Positions 2,882 to 48,917 of a stretch of 64,000 nt of DNA are shown here, in pieces (positions within the stretch are counted from its first letter, which is position 1; the number at the start of each line of letters is the position of its first letter). Origin of the DNA: a virus; IMG/VR virus record IMGVR_UViG_3300048834_000169, positions 1 to 64,000 of that record. One strand, written 5' to 3'. A program made the translations under genes and the position numbers. Under the pieces are notes generated by a model that saw only the letters and a list, made by a program, of their open reading frames with translations, made no database searches and was not told the DNA's origin.

Positions 2882-3137
2882 TATGCAAACTAAAAAACTT
2901 AGTGCGTCGTTTACTACGAGTCGAATAGGCGACCACTTTCGCCTAACTTTCCGTAATGAGAAAGATCTCGAAACTAAGACTATAGGCGAAGTGTTTACGG
3001 TAGGGCATGAATCAGTCACTGTACGACTAACGCCAAGAACTGCGCTAGAACTAGTTGAGTTTATAGATAGAACGTTAGAAGATTACGACTTTAGCTTAGT
3101 CGACGATAAAAAACGAGTAAATAAAAAGAAGAAATGA
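2859..3137 (+). CDS. Hypothetical protein
   Basis: ORF between two ankyrin genes, overlapping the next start (ATGA). Confidence 0.65.
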   Translation: MLLRKVNDMQTKKLSASFTTSRIGDHFRLTFRNEKDLETKTIGEVFTVGHESVTVRLTPRTALELVEFIDRTLEDYDFSLVDDKKRVNKKKK

Positions 3138-3706
3138 GTATGTTAGCAGTAAAGTGTCAAAACGACCTTGACAACGACTTGATCGTGTTTAGCCGATACG
3201 GTCACCTAGCCGTAGTGCAGTACCTAATCGAAAAGGGCGCTGACGTTAGGGCCCTAGGCGACGCGGCGCTACGCTGGGCGGCGGAGAATGGGCACCTAGC
3301 CGTAGTGCAGTACCTAATCGAAAAGGGCGCTGACGTTAGGGACAGCGGCAAGTATGCGCTACGCGGGGCGGCTCGTAAAGGGCACCTATCCGTAGTGCAG
3401 TACCTAATCGAAAAGGGCGCTGACGTTAGGGCCCTAGGCGACGCGCCGCTACACTGGGCGGCGTTTAACGGTCACCTACACGTCGTGCAGTACCTAATCG
3501 AAAAGGGCGCTAACGTTAGGGCTCATGACGACTTGGCGCTACGCGTGGCGGCGGAGAGTGGACACCTACACGTCGTGAAGTACCTCGTCGAAAAGGGCGC
3601 TGACGTTAGGGCCGGTGACGACTGGGCGCTACGCGAGGCGGCGAATAACGGGCACCTACCTGTCGTGAAGTATTTAGAGAATGTTATTAAGGAGAATAAG
3701 AAATGA
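3134..3706 (+). CDS. Ankyrin-repeat protein (N-cap plus 5 modules)
   Basis: Same 30-aa repeat as 2228..2881. Confidence 0.95.
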   Translation: MSMLAVKCQNDLDNDLIVFSRYGHLAVVQYLIEKGADVRALGDAALRWAAENGHLAVVQYLIEKGADVRDSGKYALRGAARKGHLSVVQYLIEKGADVRALGDAPLHWAAFNGHLHVVQYLIEKGANVRAHDDLALRVAAESGHLHVVKYLVEKGADVRAGDDWALREAANNGHLPVVKYLENVIKENKK

Positions 3707-4971: not shown

Positions 4972-5406
4972 ATGCAAACTGAGCTAAACTGTGCCCCTAA
5001 ATTTATAGTCGTACTTCAAGATTTCGTTGGCGATGCTGGCATAGCTCATCCTATAACTCAAACAGCCCCTGGTCGACAGTTTAGCATGTGGCTAGAGGCC
5101 GCAGGACTATTAGGGTACGATTTTCGTATTACAAGTGTCATTAAACGCTCTATAAGCCCCACTGAGAGGATTTCTTCTGAAGAACGGGCAAATGCCTTAG
5201 ACGTTCTAAACGTTGAACTACAGCCGTTTAAATGCGTTATATGCCTAGGGACTATTGCATCAACCGCCGTACGTAAGTTAGAATTTACTGATAAAATAGT
5301 GCTGGCCTTAGCTCGCCCTCAGGACATTGAGGGCCAGTCTAGTCTACCTCAAAATATTAAAGATATAATTGAGTCTTTACAGAAGTTCAAATCTAAGCTA
5401 GTCTGA
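4972..5406 (+). CDS. Degenerate uracil-DNA glycosylase family-4-like protein
   Basis: PGRQFSMWLEAAGL, ITSVIK and VICLGTIA resemble UDG-F4 segments; the GEAPG motif is absent. Confidence 0.5.
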   Translation: MQTELNCAPKFIVVLQDFVGDAGIAHPITQTAPGRQFSMWLEAAGLLGYDFRITSVIKRSISPTERISSEERANALDVLNVELQPFKCVICLGTIASTAVRKLEFTDKIVLALARPQDIEGQSSLPQNIKDIIESLQKFKSKLV

Positions 5407-5647: not shown

Positions 5648-5964
5648 TGACTAAGCAAGAAATAGACGAATGGATCGCTATGCAGTCTACTAACTTAATG
5701 GCGGATATGCTTAGTTTTGGCGGCTCAGAATTAGAATTCAGGGATTATATGTACGATAGATTTAAGTTTACCTTGGAGCTTACAGCTTCCATGCTCTCTA
5801 GTGGTCCGTCTGTTAGAGTTTCTAAGTTTGCAGTGGAGAAGATATTTGAGACTGCTATCGTAGAGTTTAATCAAAAAAACGGCGGCCTGACTCCTAGAGA
5901 GGCGGCTATATACGAAGCGGCTTTCTTCGATGCAGCTAGGCGTCTTAATAAGAATAGGGAATAG
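5647..5964 (+). CDS. Hypothetical protein
   Basis: TAATG coupling. Confidence 0.6.
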   Translation: MTKQEIDEWIAMQSTNLMADMLSFGGSELEFRDYMYDRFKFTLELTASMLSSGPSVRVSKFAVEKIFETAIVEFNQKNGGLTPREAAIYEAAFFDAARRLNKNRE

Positions 5965-5966
5965 TT

Positions 5967-6182
5967 ATGAGCGCTGAATCGATGGCCCCGCCAGTCTATC
6001 TCCTTAAGCTTGACAATCAGTGGACTGTTGTGTGGGGTCATTGTTCAGCTTCGGATAAGGATTACTATATAAAAGTGCTCTACGACGATACATTGTCTGA
6101 TACTGCACAAGATAGGTCGGAAGAGCTTAGACGGACTCTTTCTAGATTTGATGCATGGAAACGTAATTCAGGGTTAAAGTAA
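5967..6182 (+). CDS. Hypothetical protein
   Basis: Packed in operon. Confidence 0.55.
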   Translation: MSAESMAPPVYLLKLDNQWTVVWGHCSASDKDYYIKVLYDDTLSDTAQDRSEELRRTLSRFDAWKRNSGLK

Positions 6183-6433
6183 TGAGAAGCGTTCTTGGTA
6201 CTATTGTAGCAGCGTTATTGTTACTTATAGCCTATACGGTAGGCGGCGAGTTTACTTATTACTACATGGCTAAAAATGTAGAAAGAGCTTATCTACTGGG
6301 CTGCGGACTAGGTCGCGCCAAGCAGTACAATTTTACAGTGCCGTTGCCGCCACAAGACGTAGTCTTTTGCCATACTGCGGCCAGTTACTTTAACGGTACG
6401 CTAAACCCCTCCAGCGGTAACGGCTCTAAGTAA
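6182..6433 (+). CDS. Small membrane or secreted protein
   Basis: Hydrophobic N-terminus, TAATG coupling. Confidence 0.6.
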   Translation: MRSVLGTIVAALLLLIAYTVGGEFTYYYMAKNVERAYLLGCGLGRAKQYNFTVPLPPQDVVFCHTAASYFNGTLNPSSGNGSK

Positions 6434-7381
6434 CAGCCTGGCCATCAACTCCCGAAACTCCTGTGCGGAGCCGCCGATATTTAACCTAATATAACTATCA
6501 GAGTCTCCAAAATCTCGCCCCCTATAATACTCTACCCCGATCTGGTCTAGCGTATCGGTAGGGTCCTTGATATAAGCGAACATCCCTCGCTGCTCTCCAT
6601 AAATATGGGTAGGGTACGCCTGATAAAATTCGTTAATACGATCGTTAAGAACCTCTCGTGCTCTATCGAGTATGGAACTCCCCACTTGCATTTCTATAAG
6701 AACGCCCTCTATGAATTCCACGGCTACCTGCTGAGCTAGTGGACTTACTCCACATGTACTCATTTCAATATGAGAAGAGATAACTTTAGCTAAATCTTCG
6801 TGATTATTTACAGTGACGCCCTTTTTAACTAGTGCCCAACCTAGCCTAACTGACGACATTCCGGACAGCTTGCTAAAACTAAAAATTAGTACGTCATTAT
6901 TCAGGGGTACGAGTTTTTCGTCAGGCCTGTAAAACGTAGGCCAATGGTAAGACGCATCCACTACCTTAGCTTCGTTAACTATCGCAGATAGCTTACCATC
7001 AGGATTATTAGGGTAGGTTACCATTAGCTTGTGTAAATTAGGGTTATTGTGGTCGTGGGGAAACTCTCTTGTGAATACCTGCATGTCTTCTACTAAGTAC
7101 CTAAACCTAGACCAAAATGGAATATATACGCCTACTGGCATAGCCCTCGATACAGCCGTCAGCATTTGACTTGCACCATTAGAGATTACCACGTCATAGT
7201 CGTGTATATTTAGTACATTGCCAACTTGCTCATGCAATGACAGGATGCTCTCTATTAAATCCTTTTGCGGTGCCGTATGATCGTAGGACTGGTTAGCCGA
7301 TGATATCGTGCCGTAGTACTGAGCATCAGTTAATTCTTGAATAAATGCTGGATTTCCAAATCTTAGGTCAAGCTTTTTCAT
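6401..7381 (-). CDS. PLP-dependent aminotransferase, alliinase/TAA1-like (fold type I)
   Basis: GASQ, YPNNPDG, DASYHWP and FSFSK(PLP Lys)LSGMSSVRLGWALVK motifs. Confidence 0.85.
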   Translation of the reverse strand: MKKLDLRFGNPAFIQELTDAQYYGTISSANQSYDHTAPQKDLIESILSLHEQVGNVLNIHDYDVVISNGASQMLTAVSRAMPVGVYIPFWSRFRYLVEDMQVFTREFPHDHNNPNLHKLMVTYPNNPDGKLSAIVNEAKVVDASYHWPTFYRPDEKLVPLNNDVLIFSFSKLSGMSSVRLGWALVKKGVTVNNHEDLAKVISSHIEMSTCGVSPLAQQVAVEFIEGVLIEMQVGSSILDRAREVLNDRINEFYQAYPTHIYGEQRGMFAYIKDPTDTLDQIGVEYYRGRDFGDSDSYIRLNIGGSAQEFRELMARLLLRAVTAGGV

Positions 7382-7689
7382 TTAACGGACTTTCTTTGCT
7401 GTTTGCGCGGCTTTTTTTTAGCTCGCTTGAGTTCAGTTAGCCTGTAAAATATCTGGTCGGGGGGTTGCCTTAATACCTCCTCTACTTTACTGTCTAGCGG
7501 GCCAAAGGCATTCTCGGCCACTTTTGCAGCCTCGTTTATATGATAGCTACCCGGGTAGTGCCTTAAACATCTATAAGCAATGTCCCTAATTATCGTAGGA
7601 ACCCCAGGAGTAGCCGATTTATCGATAAGCGCCCTAAGGAAGGCCCTAGTCTTGAGTACAGCGTAAGATCGTTCGTCAGGCATTGTCAT
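7378..7689 (-). CDS. BPSL0761-like family protein
   Basis: MTMPDERSYAV...FL...CLRHYP pattern. Confidence 0.6.
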   Translation of the reverse strand: MTMPDERSYAVLKTRAFLRALIDKSATPGVPTIIRDIAYRCLRHYPGSYHINEAAKVAENAFGPLDSKVEEVLRQPPDQIFYRLTELKRAKKKPRKQQRKSVK

Positions 7690-8000
7690 TTTCGTTTATC
7701 CTCTATATGGGCGGTAAGCCAGTGGAGACAGGCGAACCACCCAGCCTTAAATCCGTCCCTGTCTGGGGTGTAACCTTCGTTATCTTGGGACGGGAAGTTT
7801 GAATATTCTTTTATGAAGGAATTATAGGACGCGGTCTTATCGGGCCATTCAATCTTGCGGGCTTCGCGAAGAGATTTTATAATTTCTAACTTCATTACAG
7901 ACCAATCTTCTTTGTCCCAACTTTCCAGTCCAATTGCCTTGCTTAAAATTTTTCCCACAACTTCATCGGCTTTCCTGTCAGCCCAATCTTGTTCGCTCAT
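7686..8000 (-). CDS. Hypothetical protein (paralogue of 8712..8987)
   Basis: MSEQDW...LREARKIEWP. Confidence 0.65.
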   Translation of the reverse strand: MSEQDWADRKADEVVGKILSKAIGLESWDKEDWSVMKLEIIKSLREARKIEWPDKTASYNSFIKEYSNFPSQDNEGYTPDRDGFKAGWFACLHWLTAHIEDKRK

Positions 8001-8464
8001 GTTCCACTCACAATCTTTTCGCAGTTTTTAAACGTTGCTCTAAGTTTTGATAGAGCAGATAAAAAAGAAGTCGCTTGGTCATTTTTAAAAGGTTCAAAGT
8101 GACGTTTCGCAAGAATGTTAACTTCCTCTCCCGCCTTGTTGCTTTCCTGATCCTTAAACGTAAAATAATCTGTACCTGTTGCGGGCATTGAATAAAAATT
8201 CATTTCACTCAATGCTTTATTCATTTTTTCAATTGTTTCCTTTTGCAGTCTAATCACGGCAATAAGCTTTTTGATTGTGTCGGGATTTGCGGCGGCAAGG
8301 AATTCGGCGTCTGCTAAATCAAATTCTCCGTCATATCCTGTACGAAGACCTGACACCCAAGCCTCGTCACCGTCATCACTATTTAAACTCACAGTCCAAG
8401 GTCCTGGAGCCGCAGCATTAGCTTTTTCTTCAAGATCTTTTAGCAGGGATTCCAGGGTGCTCAT
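7997..8464 (-). CDS. Ead/Ea22-like protein
   Basis: AAAPGPW...DAEFLAAANPDTIKKLI motif. Confidence 0.65.
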   Translation of the reverse strand: MSTLESLLKDLEEKANAAAPGPWTVSLNSDDGDEAWVSGLRTGYDGEFDLADAEFLAAANPDTIKKLIAVIRLQKETIEKMNKALSEMNFYSMPATGTDYFTFKDQESNKAGEEVNILAKRHFEPFKNDQATSFLSALSKLRATFKNCEKIVSGT

Positions 8465-8748
8465 AATTCACCCAAAACTTCTTTACCCTTATTTTGGTAA
8501 TAATAAGGAGCACCAGCAGCTCCTCCCAAATAACATCCTAATTTATAAGCAGGAAATGCTTTTTGAATTCTAGACGGTGTGCGAAGACAATCAGCTCTCC
8601 ATGTATAATTGGGATTTGTGCTACCATTTTTATTAGCGTCAAAAAGACCAACTACAAACGCAAATAAAGACATAATAACATAAGATATAAAAACGATTTT
8701 AATGAAAATTCTCATCTCCGCCTCGATTCTATGTAGGATTTCAGCCAA
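8461..8748 (-). CDS. Small membrane protein
   Basis: One TM helix, coupled in operon. Confidence 0.55.
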   Translation of the reverse strand: MAEILHRIEAEMRIFIKIVFISYVIMSLFAFVVGLFDANKNGSTNPNYTWRADCLRTPSRIQKAFPAYKLGCYLGGAAGAPYYYQNKGKEVLGEL

Positions 8749-8987
8749 TCATAGTCGACGTATAGCTTCTTTTTGTCGGTACCATCTTTTTGTCTTTCAT
8801 ACCCAACAAGAGTTCGAATCGCTTGAATGTCTGTTGGCTCGGGCAATTCAATCTTTTGTGCTTCTCGAAGGGCTTGGGCGATATCTCGAATCATGCACTC
8901 TGGCTTAGAATCAGTGCCTTTGGGGATTGTGAAATAGTTAGACACAATCTTTATAGCCTTTTTCTCAGTCCAATCTTGTTCGCTCAT
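8712..8987 (-). CDS. Hypothetical protein (paralogue of 7686..8000)
   Basis: MSEQDW...LREAQKIELP. Confidence 0.65.
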   Translation of the reverse strand: MSEQDWTEKKAIKIVSNYFTIPKGTDSKPECMIRDIAQALREAQKIELPEPTDIQAIRTLVGYERQKDGTDKKKLYVDYDWLKSYIESRRR

Positions 8988-9000
8988 TTCATTTCACCCC

Positions 9001-9393
9001 TCATAAACCTTCTAATAGTTCCTCGTAATCCGCTGCCACTAGTATAGCCTCTCTTAGGTGCGGGAATTTTTTTACAACTTTAGCATAGGCTCTGCGGTAT
9101 GTCCACATGTGCAGCTTAGTGCTCAAGTATGTCAAGCCTGACCAGTATAGTATGCGGCTACCGTAAAACAAGTCGAAGGTCCATAACCATTTAGGGAACT
9201 GACTATACACATATCTCGGATACACTATGCTATGTAGGGAGTACCAGCCTAGCCCCGTATAGCATCTAAGAGTCCCATACTTCTCTTTTATATCCCTTAC
9301 CGGCACACGATAAAACGCTAGCTCTTCGCTCAACATTTCTCCGGCCTCAAATAGACCGTTATAGTCAAATGGCTGAGATTTATCGTCACTCAT
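9001..9393 (-). CDS. Conserved phage hypothetical protein
   Basis: IKEKYGTLRCY motif, which recurs in phage proteins. Confidence 0.6.
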   Translation of the reverse strand: MSDDKSQPFDYNGLFEAGEMLSEELAFYRVPVRDIKEKYGTLRCYTGLGWYSLHSIVYPRYVYSQFPKWLWTFDLFYGSRILYWSGLTYLSTKLHMWTYRRAYAKVVKKFPHLREAILVAADYEELLEGL

Positions 9394-9411
9394 GCACCCA
9401 TTTTAGCACTG

Positions 9412-11583
9412 TTATTTAGCTTGTGCAAGACTCTGGGTAGTAATAGCGGGGGTGGCCTTCAGCTTTACTCTCAACATATTAGCCACTTTATTATCTATCA
9501 TACACTGCGCTAATACCTCGGAAGCCTTTTGCGCGCCCGCTGCGGGCACTTGGAGTATGATCTCGTCATGGACATTGAGCATTATGGAAGCCCCTAGGCC
9601 TAGTTCTTTATTTTTGATAGAGAAGTCTATCATAGCCTGATTACAGACACTGGCCGCCAAACTCTGAATCTTATGGTTCTTAGCTACGTTAAGTGCGTTA
9701 CGACACTCAAGATATAGTGACTTACCGTCCTGTATTCCATCAATCTCGCCTAGTTTATCCATAATTTGAAAGCACGTCATTTTGCTAAAGTTTCGCACGC
9801 CGTACTTAGAATACAGTTTATGAATGGTCGCGTTTCGTTTACGCCTTCCTACTATGCTCTCAACATAGCCATACTTCTTCATATCTAGTTCAGACCTATC
9901 CATCCATTTCTTTAGTACCGGAAATGCTTTAAGATATTTGTCGTAGACTTCCTGAGCCTCGTCATAGTCTATGCGCATCATTTGAGAAAGCCGACCCGCG
10001 GAAGCTCCGTAAGGTATCGATAATGCTATGCCTTTTATCCACTGACGCTTTTCCTTATCTACTTTACCGAGGTAATTTTCGTCCTTAGGGTTAGCAGATA
10101 CATTCTTCAATCCTAGAACGTTTACGGCAATAGAGCTGTAAAAATCTAGATTATTATTCATGGTATCAATTAGCACAGTCTCGCCACTTTCGTTAGAAAA
10201 GATGTGTGGCTCTAGGCTACTATAATCGATAGCAACAAAAGCGTTACCGTCATCGGGAATAAATCCTGCCTTAATTCTAGTGTCTTCTCTTGGAAGCGTC
10301 TGTAGATTTATGGAATCGCCGCCACAACTGTAACGGCCTGATGTTGTGCCTACCTGGTTAAAGCTTGGATATATTCGGCTATTTATGTGGGTCTGTAAAA
10401 TAGGCTCAACGTACGTAGACAAGAGCTTCTTCTCTTTAGATCTTTCCCGGAGTAGTTTTAATACTATGCTGCTATCTTCATATTGGGCGGCCAGCTCATC
10501 TAGCACGTCCTTAGATGTACTACGCTTGCCTGAGTTAGTAGTCTTATTAGAGGGTAACTTTAATATGTCGAATAGTAGATAGGCCTTGTCGTCTCCGCTA
10601 TCTAGGTTGAAAATCCTGTTAGTGCCGTGCTTATCTTTGTACCAATGCATCATGGCCTTATTGTGAATCTCGGAATTGTCTTTCCAGGGCCACAAATTAT
10701 TCAAGGCTAAAAACTTTCCAAAGTCTGATCTAGGGGTAATATTCACGCCTTTTCGTATCTTATCGCGTGAATACTCGGTCAACTTATCGTCTATTAACGC
10801 AAATATCTCAGATTCGAGGTTGGAGATCTTGTCTAACATGTCTAGCTTAAGCTTCTCAAAATAAGGTACATTAATACGTACCCCTGTGGTATTAAGCTGG
10901 TATGTGACTTCAATTAATGGATATACTTCCTCGTTCCACAGCTTAATAAGCTTAGGGTCTTTGGCAATAGCCGGCCAGAACATGTCATAAAGTCGTCTAG
11001 TGTAGATTACGTCGTAAATAGCATAGTGGCCTAAGAGCTTCCAGTCCCCGCGGTAGAAGTCCTTTTGTTTCTTAGTCCAAGACCCTCCATTGGCTATCAC
11101 TGACTGCTTAAGATCGTCTTGTGGACTGTCAGCATCTGGGTCTAGGTGCAGGACAGCTAACTTTTTTAACCCAAAAGGGCCTTCCTCATTTATAGCTGTG
11201 TGATAGATTAGGGCAGTATCGGCTAGGATGTAAGGGAGGATGTCAATCCCAAAGGTGTTTTGGATGACTTTGGCGTCAAACGTACAGTTGTGTAGTAATA
11301 ACCGTTTAGACTTCGTAAAAACGTCTATAAGCGTTGATACTAATACCTGGTAGGCTGAGTCGGTCCATGGTCTAAAAAGGCCGCTATCGGGCTTATAGAG
11401 CGTTATAGGGATATAATAGCCGGTGTCTGGCGAAGTAGCCATGGATACGCCTATTACATTGGCAAATCGCCCTACCCCATCAGACTCTGTATCTAGCGCT
11501 AATAATTCGGCGGCCATTAGCTCGTCTTTAATGGCTAAGAGGTCCGCCGTATTAGTAATCAGCTTACCGTTAATAGGGATCAT
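9412..11583 (-). CDS. polA: DNA polymerase family A (3'-5' exonuclease plus polymerase)
   Basis: LDTES ExoI, HNCTFD ExoII, YAIYD ExoIII, TTSGRYS, DYSSLE motif A, RQWIKGIALSIPYG motif B, VHDE motif C. Confidence 0.95.
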   Translation of the reverse strand: MIPINGKLITNTADLLAIKDELMAAELLALDTESDGVGRFANVIGVSMATSPDTGYYIPITLYKPDSGLFRPWTDSAYQVLVSTLIDVFTKSKRLLLHNCTFDAKVIQNTFGIDILPYILADTALIYHTAINEEGPFGLKKLAVLHLDPDADSPQDDLKQSVIANGGSWTKKQKDFYRGDWKLLGHYAIYDVIYTRRLYDMFWPAIAKDPKLIKLWNEEVYPLIEVTYQLNTTGVRINVPYFEKLKLDMLDKISNLESEIFALIDDKLTEYSRDKIRKGVNITPRSDFGKFLALNNLWPWKDNSEIHNKAMMHWYKDKHGTNRIFNLDSGDDKAYLLFDILKLPSNKTTNSGKRSTSKDVLDELAAQYEDSSIVLKLLRERSKEKKLLSTYVEPILQTHINSRIYPSFNQVGTTSGRYSCGGDSINLQTLPREDTRIKAGFIPDDGNAFVAIDYSSLEPHIFSNESGETVLIDTMNNNLDFYSSIAVNVLGLKNVSANPKDENYLGKVDKEKRQWIKGIALSIPYGASAGRLSQMMRIDYDEAQEVYDKYLKAFPVLKKWMDRSELDMKKYGYVESIVGRRKRNATIHKLYSKYGVRNFSKMTCFQIMDKLGEIDGIQDGKSLYLECRNALNVAKNHKIQSLAASVCNQAMIDFSIKNKELGLGASIMLNVHDEIILQVPAAGAQKASEVLAQCMIDNKVANMLRVKLKATPAITTQSLAQAK

Positions 11584-11585
11584 AT

Positions 11586-11888
11586 TCAGTTTAAGTTGCG
11601 CTTAGCCGGCTCGTCTTCTATATCAGAATCGTCCGGGCTGGCTAAAGATATCATTTGAATATCTGAATGTTTAATGGCCATGTGGGCTATGGGAGTTTCT
11701 TCAAGCGGCGAGAATTCGCCTAATGTCAAATACATGCTGTCGCTGTCTACTACCAGACCGACTACTTGAACTCTTCCAATAACTTCGCCCATACCATCCT
11801 GCTCTTCCATAGTGGTGACAATTCTAACGTATTGTCCTATGAACCAAGAAGCTGGCGGGAGATTAAGCTCGTAAAGAGGCTTAGTCAT
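11586..11888 (-). CDS. Hypothetical protein, possible Sm/LSm-like beta fold
   Basis: IGQYVRIVT...GLVVDSDSMYLTL...IKHSDI pattern, acidic tail. Confidence 0.55.
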   Translation of the reverse strand: MTKPLYELNLPPASWFIGQYVRIVTTMEEQDGMGEVIGRVQVVGLVVDSDSMYLTLGEFSPLEETPIAHMAIKHSDIQMISLASPDDSDIEDEPAKRNLN

Positions 11889-11895
11889 GGCACAC

Positions 11896-12165
11896 CTATT
11901 CAGGTAATATTTCTGTTTGAGTTTCTAAGTTTACTGTGGCTCGGCTACGCGTAAACGGATTAATAAAAGATAGTGCAAGGTCGTCCTCTACAAATCCGCA
12001 TTCGGGCTGCATTGCGGGCGGCATTACAAGTTCTGCCATTTTCAGGCACCCATAAACTGATCCGCTGATTCGCCCTGCTTTATAAAGGCCCGCGCCTCCT
12101 GCGATAAGAAATAAGCCGGCTAATACGCCAGCGCTAATAATAAGGTATCTTCTAAGTTTTTGCAT
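11896..12165 (-). CDS. Small membrane protein
   Basis: TM helix; GGGGAG SD. Confidence 0.65.
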   Translation of the reverse strand: MQKLRRYLIISAGVLAGLFLIAGGAGLYKAGRISGSVYGCLKMAELVMPPAMQPECGFVEDDLALSFINPFTRSRATVNLETQTEILPE

Positions 12166-12185
12166 GATAATCTCCCCTCACTTTT

Positions 12186-12214
12186 ATATTACACTAGAAT
12201 AGCTTACAGAGCAA
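12186..12214 (-). promoter_or_regulatory. Sigma70-like promoter TTGCTC-17-TAATAT
   Basis: Correct spacing in the intergenic gap upstream of the polA operon. Confidence 0.5.
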
Positions 12215-15178
12215 CTAGAAGTTGCCCCACCCGTCTTTTTCAGTGTCCTTTGTCTCTAAGATCTCTAAGTCTGCTTCTTCCTCGGAGCTAAGCGAGCGAA
12301 TGTTACCAGTCATGCCATCCCAGCCAAGCCCCACAGAAAACTCTTTACCCATGCGCGTCTTTAAGGCTGCAATGCGAAGATACTTATCTTGATCGCCTTT
12401 ATTATAGCCAGGCCTCCACAGGCCAAACAGTACCGTAGCGGATTCCTCAATAGCGGAAGATCCTTTAGCAATTCGGCTATCTGTAAGAGGTGTAGCAGGG
12501 CCGCCCTTAGACCTTGCAATCTGAGCTAAGCTAATAATAAGCGTTTCAGTCTCGTTAGCTAAGTCCGATAGTTTGGGGGCGATATAAGCTAGATTAGCCG
12601 TCTCATCGGAATAGGGCCCTCGAATTCGATTAATGAAATCGTACACTACGAGTTTAAGATCGGAGCCGTGTTGGTCCTTCATGGCCAGTAGATTTTCTCT
12701 AAGCTCACCAATCTCTACTCCAGACCTAAAGTCGAAGAATACGTTCTTGTACTCTTCCATGATCTTTTGCTGGATTTCTTTGATGCGCTTCTGATCTTTG
12801 TTCTTAAAGATATCGTAGAGCCTCTTATCAGTTAGTCCGCTTACTTTCTGGGCCAGCTTTTGGTAGATTAGTGGGGCCCCCATATCCATGCTGCCCATGA
12901 CTGCCTTTAGACCAGCTTTACTGGCGTTGTTTAAAATATTTAGAATAGTGCTAGTATTATGTGTGACTGTAAAGTCTGTGCCCAGCACAAATCGTTTATT
13001 ACCGTCAATCTCAAACCCAAAATACTCTCCAAAACCTATATTCTCTAGTGAGATTTTAGTGCAGTCTTGATATCTCTGTTTAATCTGAGCTACGGCCCTT
13101 TTTCTTGCAAGCTTATTCGGTATAAGATCTAATCTGTCCCCAGTTAGATAAGCCCTATAAGCAACTGCATCCCCTTCGTAGAGTTTTCCTTTAGTAAAAG
13201 ATCTGTAATGCTTTAATTCTCTCTTATAGGTACACTTATACCCTACGGAGCGACATAGCCACTGAAATTGCTGCATAAGTCGCTCATCCGAGGATGTGAA
13301 TTCAAAAGTATTTTTATTGGGATCGTAGTGCCCGTCAGAGTCTAATAAGCCTGCGATTAAATCTAACCTCTGCGCCTTAGATCCCGTTAGATATATCCTA
13401 TGGACGTGCTTATCATTTACAAGCTCCAGTTCTCTAAGCGTATTAACGAATTCGTTTTTATTCCCGTAAAAATATACGGATACTCCATTCTCCGACTCGC
13501 GCGCAGCGTTAAACTTATAACCCTTAGCTGTGGCGTAGTTTTTAATATACTCCAAAACTTCCACGTCTTTCGCATGCATACTCACTTGAGGTTTTGATTT
13601 GCTGCCGTTGCCTAGCCAGTATCCCATAAGATAAGCAGGAATGGGTTGCGATTTTTCTTCGAATTCAACAGCCGCCTTGTATCCTTTAAAGCACTCTTTG
13701 AATTTACCGCTTGCATTTAGGTACTCTTTAACTGAAATATCTACTACTCTATTAGCGATATAAGTCTTAGTGGCCTTGTGTTGCTGATCATTAGTACACT
13801 TTAAGGACAAAATGTGAGACTCGTTTACTATGTAGTCTGCTCCATCTTCTTGGCTCACTTTATATAACGTTTCAGAACCTCTTGCTAGCGACAATACGGT
13901 ACGAGGAGTAGAATCGTCTCCCATAAGCAAGTCGCCTACTTTAACGTCTTCGACTACCTTAGTACTACCGTCGTACATTAGTACTAAGGTCCCCTTACCT
14001 AGACATTTGCCTGAGCCACTCGAACCCGCTATAACTACGTGACTGTGGGTCTGTAGTCTAATACTATCATCAATAGTATCTATTCCAGTCTTAATAGTAT
14101 TTTTATCGATGTTAGTGGCGTAGTTAGAGAAGATGTCTGACACTGAGTCAATCGTTACAAACTCTTTCTTAGCCTTACCGCTACACTTGCCACCGGTAGG
14201 GCAAATAGCCTTTAACCAGTCATGATCTGCGCAAGAGTACGTGGCACCTTTCCAGTGAGGGCCGTACAGCACTTCTATAATATTGTTCCAGATCTCAGTC
14301 TTATCGAACGGCGTTTGGTTATAACGCCTACCTTGAAGTTCGGCTGCACCCTTCAGGATTCTATAATTAACTTCTTTTGGCACGCCTTTAGATTTGTAAT
14401 GTGCGCCTAAAGCCATTAGCGCGTTATTGCGATTACCAGATGGGAAGTCCCCATTTAGGATGCGATACTTACAGGAGGGCATGCCGCGTTCTTTTTTAGA
14501 GTAATCGATGTCACCAACCTCGGCGATGGGCGTAACTTCTGGGGCGCTATTAGCGAGCGCTAGAATGGCCTGAGGAAGCTCTACGCCGTCTACGGCAGGA
14601 GAGGCTGCGTTATCCAAGTTCTTAGCCAGCTCCTTAATCTGGTCCATATTAAACTCGCTTAACTGTTCGATGCTAATAGGGAGTTTGTACAGCCCAGTGG
14701 CGGGGTGCTTAGTATAAGGGACGCGAAATACCCTAGACGCATTATAGATCTTAGTGTCCAGCGTATTTAGTCCAGTGGCTAAGTTCTGGGCTACATTTTT
14801 TAATTGAGTGGGCGTAAAGGAGTGAACAGTTTCTAATTCTACACTAAAGCCTTTAGAGCCTGAATAGGATACAAGCATCTGGTCTCTAGCGACGCCTAAG
14901 CTAATTAGTCTAGATACCAGCTCTACTGTGTCCTTTCTAGCTTGCTCTGTGTCGTCCTTACTATCAAAGTCGAACACTAAGCTAGGAGTGACTACATCGA
15001 CTATACCGGCTACGGTCTTAGTCTTCTGAAACTCGTTAAACTGATTCTCTGAGTAGCGATAGACACTTCTATAGTAATCGCTATTATAATCCTTAATGAA
15101 CTTAGAGATCTCATTAGGGGGGATAAGTTTACCGTAATCTGAAAGTCCTTTAGTAAGTCGTACGTAATTCACTTGCAC
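12215..15178 (-). CDS. AEP primase / DnaB-like helicase fusion containing an intein
   Basis: LVFDFD and SGSKG primase motifs; Walker A AGSSGSGK/T split by the intein; VVYDFI Walker B; LAQIAR; KGSSAIEE. Confidence 0.92.
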   Translation of the reverse strand: MQVNYVRLTKGLSDYGKLIPPNEISKFIKDYNSDYYRSVYRYSENQFNEFQKTKTVAGIVDVVTPSLVFDFDSKDDTEQARKDTVELVSRLISLGVARDQMLVSYSGSKGFSVELETVHSFTPTQLKNVAQNLATGLNTLDTKIYNASRVFRVPYTKHPATGLYKLPISIEQLSEFNMDQIKELAKNLDNAASPAVDGVELPQAILALANSAPEVTPIAEVGDIDYSKKERGMPSCKYRILNGDFPSGNRNNALMALGAHYKSKGVPKEVNYRILKGAAELQGRRYNQTPFDKTEIWNNIIEVLYGPHWKGATYSCADHDWLKAICPTGGKCSGKAKKEFVTIDSVSDIFSNYATNIDKNTIKTGIDTIDDSIRLQTHSHVVIAGSSGSGKCLGKGTLVLMYDGSTKVVEDVKVGDLLMGDDSTPRTVLSLARGSETLYKVSQEDGADYIVNESHILSLKCTNDQQHKATKTYIANRVVDISVKEYLNASGKFKECFKGYKAAVEFEEKSQPIPAYLMGYWLGNGSKSKPQVSMHAKDVEVLEYIKNYATAKGYKFNAARESENGVSVYFYGNKNEFVNTLRELELVNDKHVHRIYLTGSKAQRLDLIAGLLDSDGHYDPNKNTFEFTSSDERLMQQFQWLCRSVGYKCTYKRELKHYRSFTKGKLYEGDAVAYRAYLTGDRLDLIPNKLARKRAVAQIKQRYQDCTKISLENIGFGEYFGFEIDGNKRFVLGTDFTVTHNTSTILNILNNASKAGLKAVMGSMDMGAPLIYQKLAQKVSGLTDKRLYDIFKNKDQKRIKEIQQKIMEEYKNVFFDFRSGVEIGELRENLLAMKDQHGSDLKLVVYDFINRIRGPYSDETANLAYIAPKLSDLANETETLIISLAQIARSKGGPATPLTDSRIAKGSSAIEESATVLFGLWRPGYNKGDQDKYLRIAALKTRMGKEFSVGLGWDGMTGNIRSLSSEEEADLEILETKDTEKDGWGNF
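12956..14005 (-). mobile_element. Intein (350 aa) with LAGLIDADG homing endonuclease
   Basis: Starts CLGKGT after the Walker A Lys; block B NESHIL; LMGYWLGNG and LIAGLLDSDG motifs; ends VTHN before Thr+1. Confidence 0.93.
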
Positions 15179-17675: not shown

Positions 17676-17863
17676 TGGTCAAAGACGGTAGGGATATGAG
17701 CTTTTGCTTCTTGCGCTTTGATGCTTTCCTGCTCAACCTTTAGTAAAAATTCGTGACATCTAGCGTTAGATAATACTACTACTACGTGCTGCAAGTTACT
17801 TAGTGTAGACGGACGATTGTAGTAAAGCTCTCTAGTTATTGCGATAAAGTTTAGCACTTGCAC
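17672..17863 (-). CDS. Hypothetical protein
   Basis: ORF filling the gap downstream of the ankyrin gene. Confidence 0.45.
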   Translation of the reverse strand: MQVLNFIAITRELYYNRPSTLSNLQHVVVVLSNARCHEFLLKVEQESIKAQEAKAHIPTVFDH

Positions 17864-18549
17864 TTCTTAAGCTCCTTAATAACGTTTTCTAAATATTGTA
17901 CGACGTCTTTGTGTCCATTATGCGCCGCCTCGCGTAGCGCCTCGTCGTCACGGGCCCTAACGTTAGCGCCCTTTTCGATTAGGTACTGCACTACGGCTAG
18001 GTGACCATTCTCCGCCGCGTTACGCAGCGCCTCGTCGTTACGGGCCCTAACGTCAGCGCCCTTTTCGATTAGGTACTGCACTACGGCTAGGTGACCGTTA
18101 TCCGCCGACCAGCGTAGCGCCGAGTCGTCACAGGCCCTAACTTTAGCGCCCTTTTCGATGAGGAGCTGTACTACGTCTAAGTGACCGTTACGAGCCGCCC
18201 AGTGTAGCGCCGCGTCGTTATAGGCCCTAACGTTAGCACCCTTTTCGATGAGGTACTGCACTACGGCTAGGTGCCCGTTAGTAGCCGCCCGGTGTAGCGC
18301 CTCGACATCATCGGCCCTAACGTCAGCGCCCTTTTCGATTAGGTACTGCACGATGTCTAGGTGTCCATTCTCCGCCGCCCTGCGTAGCGCCGCGTCGCCA
18401 CGGGCCCTAACGTTAGCGCCCTTTTCGATTAGGTACTGCACTACGGCTAGGTGCCCGTGGCGGCTAAACTTGATTAAAGCGTCGCTAAGCTCTGTTTGAA
18501 AATGTGCGGTACCGCTATTTACTTTGTTGTTGGTTAAAGTCATAGGCAT
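17851..18549 (-). CDS. Ankyrin-repeat protein (N-cap plus 6 modules)
   Basis: Same 90-bp module as the 2-3.7 kb genes, on the opposite strand. Confidence 0.95.
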   Translation of the reverse strand: MPMTLTNNKVNSGTAHFQTELSDALIKFSRHGHLAVVQYLIEKGANVRARGDAALRRAAENGHLDIVQYLIEKGADVRADDVEALHRAATNGHLAVVQYLIEKGANVRAYNDAALHWAARNGHLDVVQLLIEKGAKVRACDDSALRWSADNGHLAVVQYLIEKGADVRARNDEALRNAAENGHLAVVQYLIEKGANVRARDDEALREAAHNGHKDVVQYLENVIKELKKCKC

Positions 18550-24163: not shown

Positions 24164-24523
24164 ATGGCCAAAAGAAAACCAAAGACCTCTATTAAGTTAC
24201 AGGTAAACGAAGAAATGTGGACGTGTCAGTTGTGGCCAGCTAAGGTCTATGAAAAACTACACGGTAACGATAGTAACGCAATTACTGATATTGAAGAATG
24301 TACCATAGACTTTAGGGACGACGCAGTCACTTTGGCAATATGCGGCCACGAGCTTATGCACGCCTACTTTAAAAACCTACACTTAGATTCTGTAGTTCAG
24401 CCTAAAATAGAAGACGTAGAAGAGATTATAGCTTCGTGGATCGGAGCTAACTTTGTAAAATTTTACCACAAGGCTAATCTTATTTACTCGGCGCTTGAGC
24501 CATATAAGCTGGAGGCAAAATGA
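24164..24523 (+). CDS. HExxH metallopeptidase-like protein
   Basis: GHELMHA...EE; upstream TAGACT-17-TAAACT promoter. Confidence 0.65.
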   Translation: MAKRKPKTSIKLQVNEEMWTCQLWPAKVYEKLHGNDSNAITDIEECTIDFRDDAVTLAICGHELMHAYFKNLHLDSVVQPKIEDVEEIIASWIGANFVKFYHKANLIYSALEPYKLEAK

Positions 24524-25170
24524 CTATTATAGGTTTAATCGGAAAAAAAGGCTCAGGTAAAACTACGGCGGCTAGACTGCTCACTAATAAGGGCTATAAA
24601 CCTTTGGCCTTTGCGGACGCCATAAAGCAAGCTGCGGCTGACGTATTCGACATTAGCTTAGACATACTCCACGATCCCGCGACAAAGGAAACAGCTAATG
24701 TACCTGTAAACCTCTCTAATACTGCTTTAAAGGCTTACCTTTGGGCGCTAAGTGATCGGTATATGCAAATACACCCCTCTGTAATTGAAGAGGCTGTGGG
24801 GCTTTATAACGGCCCTAAAAACACGTCTACTCCACGCCAGTTACTTCAAGTGTTAGGCTCTGAACTAGTCCGAGATTGCGTTGACCAAGACTATTGGCTA
24901 AAGGCCATAGCTTCCCAAATACAGTTCGACGGTAAATACGCAATCCACGACGTGCGCTTTCAGAATGAGGCCGACTATATTGTAAACAAGCTGGGCGGTA
25001 AGCTAATGATGATAAAACGCCCAGGGCTAGTAAATTCCGACTCGCACGCTTCTGAACAATTCGAACCTAAGGCTGTAGATATTACAATCATAAACAATTC
25101 AACTCTACTTCAATTTGAAGCAGATGTAATAGCCGCTATTTCTAAATTAACCGATGGGCAAGCGACCTAA
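24520..25170 (+). CDS. Deoxynucleoside monophosphate kinase
   Basis: IIGLIGKKGSGKTT, AFAD, TPRQLLQ.LG, DVRFQNE, HASE. Confidence 0.9.
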   Translation: MTIIGLIGKKGSGKTTAARLLTNKGYKPLAFADAIKQAAADVFDISLDILHDPATKETANVPVNLSNTALKAYLWALSDRYMQIHPSVIEEAVGLYNGPKNTSTPRQLLQVLGSELVRDCVDQDYWLKAIASQIQFDGKYAIHDVRFQNEADYIVNKLGGKLMMIKRPGLVNSDSHASEQFEPKAVDITIINNSTLLQFEADVIAAISKLTDGQAT

Positions 25171-48326: not shown

Positions 48327-48917
48327 TTAGGGCATGAACTGGCGAGGCTTACATCCAGGTCGATTCATTTCTGCCCTTACGATATAATCTACATGTGCCC
48401 AGCCTTCGGTTTTACTGGGATGCTCTTGCCACATGCCTAATCTAGCTAATACTTCTTGAGCAGAGTCGGATTGCAGGATAGAGTCTAGACTACCGTCTTT
48501 ATCTGCAAAATCGATAGCTAGCCCTCTTAGGTGGCCGGATCTCTTAGCCGCGCCGGATATAGTTGCATTTACGGCAGATGGGCGAAATCCGGAAGACACC
48601 TTAGGCTTTGGTAAGTCTAATTCTCGAAATAAGGCGTTTACTTTATCTACTAAGCCCATGGCGGCTGAGCGTATCTCATACGTAAGTTCTGGGTTAGTAG
48701 CACGTTCTGGGTACTTGCCTGAGGACGTAATCCAATCGTCTAATGTTATTGCCGGCTCAGCTACGGCCACGTCTTCTTGCACTAGACGCTCTATAGGCTC
48801 GATTACGGGACTTTCTTTTACGGGGACGGAGGTAGGCCGGGGCAGGTCTTTTGTGCTTAATGATGCGCCTTTAAACACGTTTAATAGCAGTTTAAGTATG
48901 CCTATAAGCAAGTCCAT
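48327..48917 (-). CDS. Peptidase M15-family endolysin
   Basis: SSGFRP...N...GAAKRSGHLRGLAIDF...WAHVD. Confidence 0.85.
   Translation of the reverse strand: MDLLIGILKLLLNVFKGASLSTKDLPRPTSVPVKESPVIEPIERLVQEDVAVAEPAITLDDWITSSGKYPERATNPELTYEIRSAAMGLVDKVNALFRELDLPKPKVSSGFRPSAVNATISGAAKRSGHLRGLAIDFADKDGSLDSILQSDSAQEVLARLGMWQEHPSKTEGWAHVDYIVRAEMNRPGCKPRQFMP

Follow-up and report, generated by a model that had tools for sequence, protein, structure and literature searches.

TAA1-family enzymes start auxin synthesis in plants and alliinase makes the allicin of garlic; the cofactor of such enzymes, pyridoxal 5'-phosphate (PLP), is derived from vitamin B6. Why would a phage encode a protein of this kind? 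The question is raised by an open reading frame (ORF) in the IMG/VR virus record IMGVR_UViG_3300048834_000169, of which we analysed bases 1-64000 (64,000 nucleotides, hereafter the window). The original prediction, made from the DNA letters, described the ORF as a phage-encoded alliinase/TAA1-like PLP enzyme. We found that the protein is a compact, phage-borne variant of this known enzyme family, and that the variant itself is new. The fullest account that we offer, to which we give an even chance, is of a dimeric, active fold-type I PLP enzyme that would be sister to the eukaryotic family and encoded in a replication operon, with aminotransferase as the preferred activity; family membership, an intact gene, residue conservation and the place in the operon are what we show, whereas reaction type and substrate are what we infer.

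A compact enzyme of the TAA1/alliinase family

The ORF begins with ATG and runs for 326 amino acids (aa) without an internal stop.

6401-7381, minus strand: compact TAA1/alliinase-family fold-type I PLP enzyme, intact 326-aa ORF (ORF list, Pfam, AlphaFold2 and Foldseek)
6635-7270, minus strand: stretch matched by Alliinase_C, residues 38-249 (Pfam; a six-frame search of the record gives 6638-7270)

Pfam Alliinase_C matched this protein at 85.2 bits (E = 5.4e-24; cut-off 22). Aminotran_1_2 matched as well, at 32.4 bits (E = 7.2e-8), and this second match, together with the looseness of the Alliinase_C cut-off, which the model exceeds in 3 of 14 well-known control prokaryote genomes searched in six frames, is what could be said for an ordinary HisC/AspC-type bacterial aminotransferase taken from the host, its likeness to alliinase being superficial. 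Because of those control genomes, we count the 53-bit margin between the two models and not the cut-off. The margin favours Alliinase_C in the very comparison that the original prediction had proposed, and NCBIfam gave HisC/AspC-type enzymes no better score: its 13 matches all lie at or below 26 bits against cut-offs of 276-575, the best being DAPAT_plant (LL-diaminopimelate (LL-DAP) aminotransferase; 26 bits, cut-off 364.7), with hisC at 23 bits (cut-off 276.55). A phmmer search of all PDB sequences returned TAA1 (3bwn, E = 6.9e-14) and garlic alliinase (1.1e-11 for 2hor, and 1.3e-11), and the next match had an E-value of 0.11. The match to Alliinase_C and TAA1 is far beyond chance. PHROGs gave only four weak matches of unknown function (E >= 0.0017), and the EGF-like alliinase domain PF04863 had no match in the enzyme at E <= 1.

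The fold agrees with these scores. An AlphaFold2 model built on an alignment of 44 compact relatives reached a mean predicted local distance difference test score (pLDDT) of 95.4 and a predicted TM-score (pTM) of 0.93. In a Foldseek search of the PDB, TAA1 chains came first (3bwn, E = 8e-23, query TM-score (TMq) 0.80), followed by alliinase (1lk9, E = 1.3e-20, TMq 0.83); generic aminotransferases followed at about 1e-16 to 1e-15, with 1.5e-16 for the best next family. This gap of six orders of magnitude speaks against the HisC/AspC reading, as do the trees described below, which separate generic aminotransferases at Shimodaira-Hasegawa-like approximate likelihood ratio test (SH-aLRT) values of 98-99, and the 11 of 17 loci from GTDB genomes that join this generic outgroup, none of them close to the query. 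We give that reading hardly any probability.

The motifs on which the original prediction was built are present in the translation in the claimed order: LDLRFGNP, LIESILSLHEQVGN, VISNGASQ, VTYPNNPDG, DASYHWP, IFSFSKLSGMSSVRLGWALVK, GVSPLAQ and GRDFGDSDSYIRL. All eight stand, and the spacing given for the last one needs correction, since four residues and not three lie between DFG and YIRL. Its placement of the protein nearer to TAA1 and alliinase than to generic class I/II aminotransferases is borne out by Pfam, PDB sequence, fold and trees alike, so that membership of the TAA1/TAR/alliinase family is supported. That the family is mostly known from eukaryotes agrees with the literature (10.1101/2024.03.19.585368, PMC9309667).

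We next list the catalytic positions, with their codons.

6869-6871, minus strand: codon of K171 (FSFSK motif), the lysine predicted to form the Schiff base with PLP (the same in all 44 relatives)
6956-7012, minus strand: codons P124-N125-N126-P127 to D142-Y145, PNNP motif and predicted PLP-ring Asp/Tyr (N126, D142 and Y145 invariant)
6485-6487, minus strand: codon of R299, predicted alpha-carboxylate-binding arginine (invariant in the 44-relative alignment)

Aligned at a mean column identity of 31%, the 44 compact relatives have 20 invariant columns, including G9, Y33, N126, D142, Y145, K171, R179 and R299. Counting along the phmmer alignments places K171 opposite TAA1 K217 and alliinase K251, which we take to be the PLP-binding lysines of those enzymes, N126 opposite TAA1 N168, and D142 opposite D191. 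Class I aminotransferases keep their PLP ring in place with the PNNP motif and the Asp/Tyr pair, and N126 and D142 are 100% conserved also in the eukaryote-type group and the outgroup of our trees. The R299 position is Arg in 100% of the compact group and the outgroup and in 93% of the eukaryote-type group. If the residues have the roles that we assume from class I aminotransferases (Schiff-base lysine, O3' asparagine, ring-nitrogen aspartate, phosphate arginine and alpha-carboxylate arginine), the predicted cofactor and carboxylate set is complete and the catalyst would be intact. The invariant R299 and the Gly9 loop would fit a free amino acid as substrate. The N-terminal arm is almost absent in compact proteins, in which the conserved catalytic-domain Gly is already residue 9; an enzyme with neither the EGF-like domain nor most of this arm would keep the whole cofactor and alpha-carboxylate machinery.

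The gene belongs to a complete phage of 81.8 kb. The record has 81,795 bases with direct terminal repeats and an estimated completeness of 100%, and we located an exact 127-base terminal repeat. A simple greedy caller found 127 ORFs in the whole record, with PHROG matches to a family-A DNA polymerase, a primase-helicase, an exonuclease and virion proteins; PHROG and Pfam together also gave a PD-(D/E)XK exonuclease, a RecA-like ATPase and several ankyrin-repeat genes. The terminal repeats, the completeness and the replication and virion matches bear out the term phage-encoded. A tRNA search of the phage found none. Its closest cultured-phage DNA polymerases are those of Flavobacterium phages, at an identity of only ~29%.

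Phage-borne relatives and their place in the family

An index of 5.8 billion proteins gave 13 matches. The eight nearest metagenomic relatives (P0002-P0009) have 49-55% identity to the enzyme, and all have PF04864; the other four matches reach at most 32%. An exhaustive search of 1.84 billion cluster representatives turned up 630 clusters at E <= 0.001; the number falls to 201 (50%-identity clusters) at E <= 1e-10 and to 7 at E <= 1e-30, and most matching clusters were 300-360 aa long. Ten of the best-matching clusters, which we looked up, are all metagenomic (ENA, JGI and Logan), none being from NCBI or UniRef. A single degenerate motif found 55 stretches in IMG/VR, 35 of which encode relatives. 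Alliinase_C matched all 44 compact relatives, with a best E-value of 9.2e-63 as against 6.4e-26 for Aminotran_1_2. In the ESM Atlas, the clusters closest in features consist of Viruses (Uroviricota) to 83% and 96%, and a Streptophyta cluster ranks between them. The description of the gene as unusual did not hold among phages, given this large compact clade (~300-350 aa), which is the nearest non-eukaryotic relative of the TAA/alliinase family and is already visible in protein databases under automatic names.

Other collections gave little. There was no match by tblastn in 50,697 GenBank phage records and no close viral structure in BFVD, the best being a Hyperionvirus LL-DAP aminotransferase (E = 8e-14). 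Single-protein pattern scans of IMG/VR for the enzyme and for the DNA polymerase found nothing, and a metagenome contig scan with A4 found one distant locus only (L055). A full-text literature search, with supplements outside its scope, showed no publication on phage members among the matches listed.

We also searched 185,579 GTDB species genomes with one motif, which gave 166 stretches and 17 relatives. In the tree, besides the 11 that join generic aminotransferases, three of these are compact-type and three are long proteins from Chlamydiota. The compact-type loci come from metagenome-assembled genomes (MAGs) of Elusimicrobia, Cytophagales and Paceibacterota, and many small co-directional ORFs with homologues at viral loci surround them; around L039 and L040, three genes of the phage described here have homologues. 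We read these compact-type loci as phage or prophage DNA. L039 (Cytophagales MAG, 146.7-kb contig) and L040 (Paceibacterota MAG, 10.1-kb contig) are near-identical phage-like regions with a compact alliinase-like gene. Both have homologues of this phage's trypsin-like peptidase and subtilase-like gene (cluster 150), and L039 also has one of its AAA ATPase, at 32-37% identity. Both contigs are likely to be phage DNA, with at least one of them probably mis-binned.

The three Chlamydiota MAG proteins (L043:7434-9029, L045:7431-9026 and L052:7434-9023) have ~530 aa with a ~110-aa N-terminal extension, and their loci look chromosomal. Those of L043 and L052 match Alliinase_C weakly, at 42-44 bits, above Aminotran_1_2. 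In the tree they form a very long branch inside the eukaryote-type group, which may reflect exchange between Chlamydiae and eukaryotes or long-branch attraction.

We placed the protein with two trees, both quick searches under LG+G4. Tree 1 had 176 rows (189 before identical sequences were removed); its metagenome rows were P0002-P0100 of 270-380 aa plus chosen longer ones, and two of its outgroup rows, L056_out and L060_out, were wrong ORFs, corrected for tree 2. Tree 2 had 116 rows, picked after tree 1 was seen, with L065_out excluded. In tree 1, compact, plant TAR, protist and longer metagenomic proteins formed one clade of 158 rows (SH-aLRT 99), and in tree 2 the 14-row outgroup was split off at SH-aLRT 98. 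Within tree 1, the query fell in a 12-row metagenome subclade of the compact group (SH-aLRT 96), the eukaryote-type group comprised 33 rows (SH-aLRT 98), and plants formed their own clade (SH-aLRT 100). Tree 1 did not place the query inside the plant TAA1/TAR1/TAR2 clade.

Tree 1 seemed to nest the eukaryotic group within the phage group, at weak nodes with SH-aLRT 80-91. We rejected this arrangement, as constraining the 75 compact rows to one clade raised the log-likelihood by 70 units over that of the free quick search (p = 0.96 in the approximately unbiased (AU) test, whose groups were defined after tree 1 was seen). The best-supported topology would thus make the compact phage group and the eukaryotic TAA/alliinase group sisters. 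From such a topology no direction of transfer can be read, and the original prediction's view of a bearing on the family's origin keeps its 'may'.

Aminotransferase or lyase

The two characterised relatives of the protein catalyse different reactions. Arabidopsis TAA1, TAR1 and TAR2 (PDB 3bwn and 3bwo; PF04864), which are L-tryptophan:pyruvate aminotransferases, include the best solved relative, and neither they nor the phage enzyme have an EGF-like domain. TAA1 and the phage enzyme have the columns LH..VGN, PNNPDG, D..Y.WP and SK...G...R.GWALVK in common; the TAA1 chain has 391 aa (PDB), whereas the phage enzyme has 326 and almost no N-terminal arm. Garlic alliinase (PDB 1lk9 and 2hor) is the second-best solved relative and has the same PLP-binding set, in chains of 427-448 aa with the N-terminal EGF-like domain that PF04863 does not find in the phage enzyme. 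Plant TAR3/TAR4 and the alliinase-type proteins of algae and protists belong to the same Pfam family and join the compact group against generic aminotransferases, but have 400-520 aa, mostly with EGF_alliinase, and form the eukaryote-type clade. Generic class I aminotransferases (kynurenine, aspartate, prephenate and LL-DAP) have the same fold-type I architecture and catalytic residues, yet score far more weakly throughout and stand apart in the trees.

We compared columns between the 75 compact-group rows, the eukaryote-type group and the outgroup of 14 rows. H50, N55, W147-P148, F167, W182-A183 and R248 are common to the compact and eukaryotic groups and not to the outgroup; H50, N55, W147, P148, F167, W182 and A183 are conserved in at least 79% of compact and at least 89% of eukaryote-type rows. 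Two further stretches set the compact group or this protein apart.

7106-7108, minus strand: codon of R92, compact-clade-specific arginine two residues past W90 (column comparison)
6794-6814, minus strand: seven-residue insertion (residues 190-196) private to this protein (gaps in 99% of compact rows)

The R92 column is Arg in 85% of the 75 compact rows and Val in 75% of plant rows, and the outgroup has no consensus. A G-M-F motif at residues 266-268, conserved at 95-97% in the compact group, stands where plants have P-A-Y/F and is closer to the generic aminotransferase outgroup. In the trees, the phage and metagenome proteins form a clade separate from the plant enzymes. R92 would lie near the pocket, two residues after the predicted PLP-stacking aromatic W90. 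Arg92 beside this Trp would hint at an acidic co-substrate or a negatively charged substrate, unlike the hydrophobic TAA1 pocket. These features make up our lean towards an aminotransferase: TAA1 is the best match by sequence and by fold E-value, the GMF motif is outgroup-like, and R92 is predominantly Arg. They weakly favour an aminotransferase over a C-S lyase. The conserved residues are as compatible with the one chemistry as with the other.

A C-S or beta-lyase like alliinase would convert a cysteine derivative to pyruvate, ammonia and a reactive sulfur product; candidate substrates would be cysteine, cystathionine and S-substituted cysteines or their sulfoxides. Alliinase stands little further from the protein than TAA1 does, at 1.1e-11 against 6.9e-14 by sequence and with the higher TMq, and the compact clade branches beside the eukaryotic group as a whole and not beside its TAA subclade. 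According to PMC10015382 and PMC5611494, the alliinase-type architecture is ancestral in eukaryotes and TAA activity is a land-plant specialisation, which would suit a lyase. The EGF-like domain of alliinase is missing, however, no sulfur-metabolism neighbours appear among the recurrent neighbour clusters scanned, and the conserved residues speak no more for this chemistry than for transamination. We consider a lyase unlikely, but it is the chief alternative to an aminotransferase.

The narrower possibility of a tryptophan or aromatic aminotransferase making indole-3-pyruvate, the auxin precursor, as TAA1 does, draws on TAA1 being the best solved relative and on the several ankyrin-repeat genes, a possible sign that the bacterial host is associated with a eukaryote. 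In the fold alignment, however, no more than about 22% of positions are identical to TAA1, and the protein lies outside the plant TAA clade, with a conserved Arg at the plant Val position. The Pfam scan, which covered 31 of 127 ORFs, showed no YUCCA-like, decarboxylase or dehydrogenase partner, and the relatives are spread over many unrelated phage backgrounds. We regard this role as improbable.

Several points weigh against our preference for an aminotransferase sister to the eukaryotic family. The reactions of the two characterised relatives, transamination and C-S beta-elimination, are separated by none of our computations, and the TM-score is higher for alliinase (0.83) than for TAA1 (0.80). 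The proposed pocket position of R92 follows from alignment logic only, and the aminotransferase reading is weakly held. Besides the speed of both tree searches and the late naming of the AU-test groups, the outgroup is small, with 8 of its 14 rows from one Peribacillus genome. Finally, the viral loci have no conserved metabolic neighbour, and therefore context points to no substrate.

The replication operon and what the gene may mean

The enzyme gene closes a minus-strand block that is opened by the primase-helicase and the polymerase (ORF list).

7378-11583, minus strand: upstream genes of the block, seven small ORFs and the family-A DNA polymerase (ORF list)
9412-11583, minus strand: family-A DNA polymerase (PHROG, E = 6e-100)
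12215-15178, minus strand: primase-helicase (PHROG/Pfam)

The start codon of the enzyme gene and the stop codon of ORF 7378-7689 ahead of it overlap as ATGA (sequence around 7381). The enzyme gene thus ends the DNA-polymerase/primase operon, and translational coupling is predicted from the ATGA overlap. The gene would be transcribed and translated last in this operon, and an L-amino-acid:2-oxo-acid aminotransferase made there would shift the amino-acid and keto-acid pools of the infected cell during phage replication. A consensus promoter and terminator scan of 5900-12300 gave no more sites than shuffled sequences, and no terminator-like hairpin was found between the enzyme gene and the convergent ORF 6182-6433 (plus strand). 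This ORF encodes an 83-aa protein with a hydrophobic N-terminus and overlaps the 3' end of the enzyme gene by 33 bases (6401-6433).

Other observations concern the operon itself. ORFs 7686-8000 and 8712-8987, both on the minus strand, each start with MSEQDW and look like paralogues. The primase-helicase has 987 aa, with primase PHROGs at residues 64-290 and a DnaB-like helicase at 742-974; the part between them (about 365-752) is matched by PHROGs that bear the label 'terminase large subunit' (E = 1e-26). An insertion, for instance an intein, could explain this, as could a wrong PHROG label. Outside the operon, a 144-aa ORF at 4972-5406 (plus strand) matches the uracil-DNA-glycosylase superfamily below the threshold (PF03167, 19.7 bits; cut-off 24.3).

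We examined the gene's surroundings in 35 IMG/VR loci and the whole genome of this phage, using the greedy ORF caller and clustering 1,134 ORFs. The enzyme ORF was called in 33 of the 35 loci, L011 and L032 being dropped, and ten recurrent neighbour clusters were scanned with Pfam. The commonest neighbour is an M15-peptidase-like gene, found at 13 loci; in this phage it lies at 48327-48917, 41 kb from the enzyme gene. Other recurrent neighbours are a metallopeptidase-like gene, a 211-aa gene of unknown function, terminase/portal-type genes, and GroEL-like, SbcC-like ATPase, ribonucleotide reductase and PD-(D/E)XK exonuclease genes. The relatives' gene usually sits in early or replication regions, near the ribonucleotide reductase, SbcC-like ATPase, exonuclease and GroEL-like genes, and in one lineage directly ahead of lysis and packaging genes. 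Across the 35 viral loci and this genome there is no universal partner gene, and several loci are near-duplicates; we read the neighbours as lineage synteny and not as a pathway.

The remaining genes of interest are spread over the phage.

2228-2881, 3134-3706 and 17851-18549 of the window, and 77569-78147 of the genome (L002:15569-16147): ankyrin-repeat genes (Pfam Ank)
24520-25170 of the window, plus strand: dNMP (deoxynucleoside monophosphate) kinase (PF21448, E = 9e-20)
68180-68779 of the genome (L002:6180-6779), beyond the window: dCTP (deoxycytidine triphosphate)-deaminase-like gene (PF22769, E = 2e-29)

The ankyrin-repeat genes, at least four and all small, match Pfam Ank families with E-values down to 1e-57. 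No thymidylate-synthase-like gene was seen among the phage ORFs scanned.

In phages that hypermodify thymidine, PLP enzymes process base-appended amino acids. A replication-linked role of this kind, for example processing an amino acid on a modified base, would suit the last gene of a replication operon in a genome with a dNMP kinase and a dCTP-deaminase-like gene, and copies in other phages lie near ribonucleotide reductase, the SbcC-like ATPase and the PD-(D/E)XK exonuclease. Yet neither the 31 of 127 ORFs nor the 10 neighbour clusters scanned contain a hydroxymethylase, a base kinase or an amino-acid:DNA transferase, and R299 and G9, which are predicted to bind a free alpha-carboxylate, do not vary among the 44 relatives, in keeping with a free amino acid as substrate. 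Nucleotide or DNA hypermodification also seems improbable to us, and an aminotransferase acting on free amino acids is still the activity that we would prefer.

How the TAA genes arose is a matter of dispute, in which horizontal transfer is one of the proposed routes (PMC5611494, PMC10015382). For that debate, the compact phage clade provides a concrete outgroup or candidate donor. A far-reaching version, which we consider a long shot, is that this clade is a prokaryote-side reservoir of the TAA/alliinase family and that the enzyme that starts auxin synthesis was virus-borne in origin; in this ankyrin-rich phage, the enzyme might act as an aromatic aminotransferase through which an infected bacterium, itself associated with a eukaryote, gives off signals of the indole-3-pyruvate or auxin type together with its ankyrin effectors. 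For enzymology, the protein offers a single-domain form of the fold that is small (~320 aa) and modelled with high confidence. For phage biology, it represents a widespread gene that is positioned for expression together with the replication genes.

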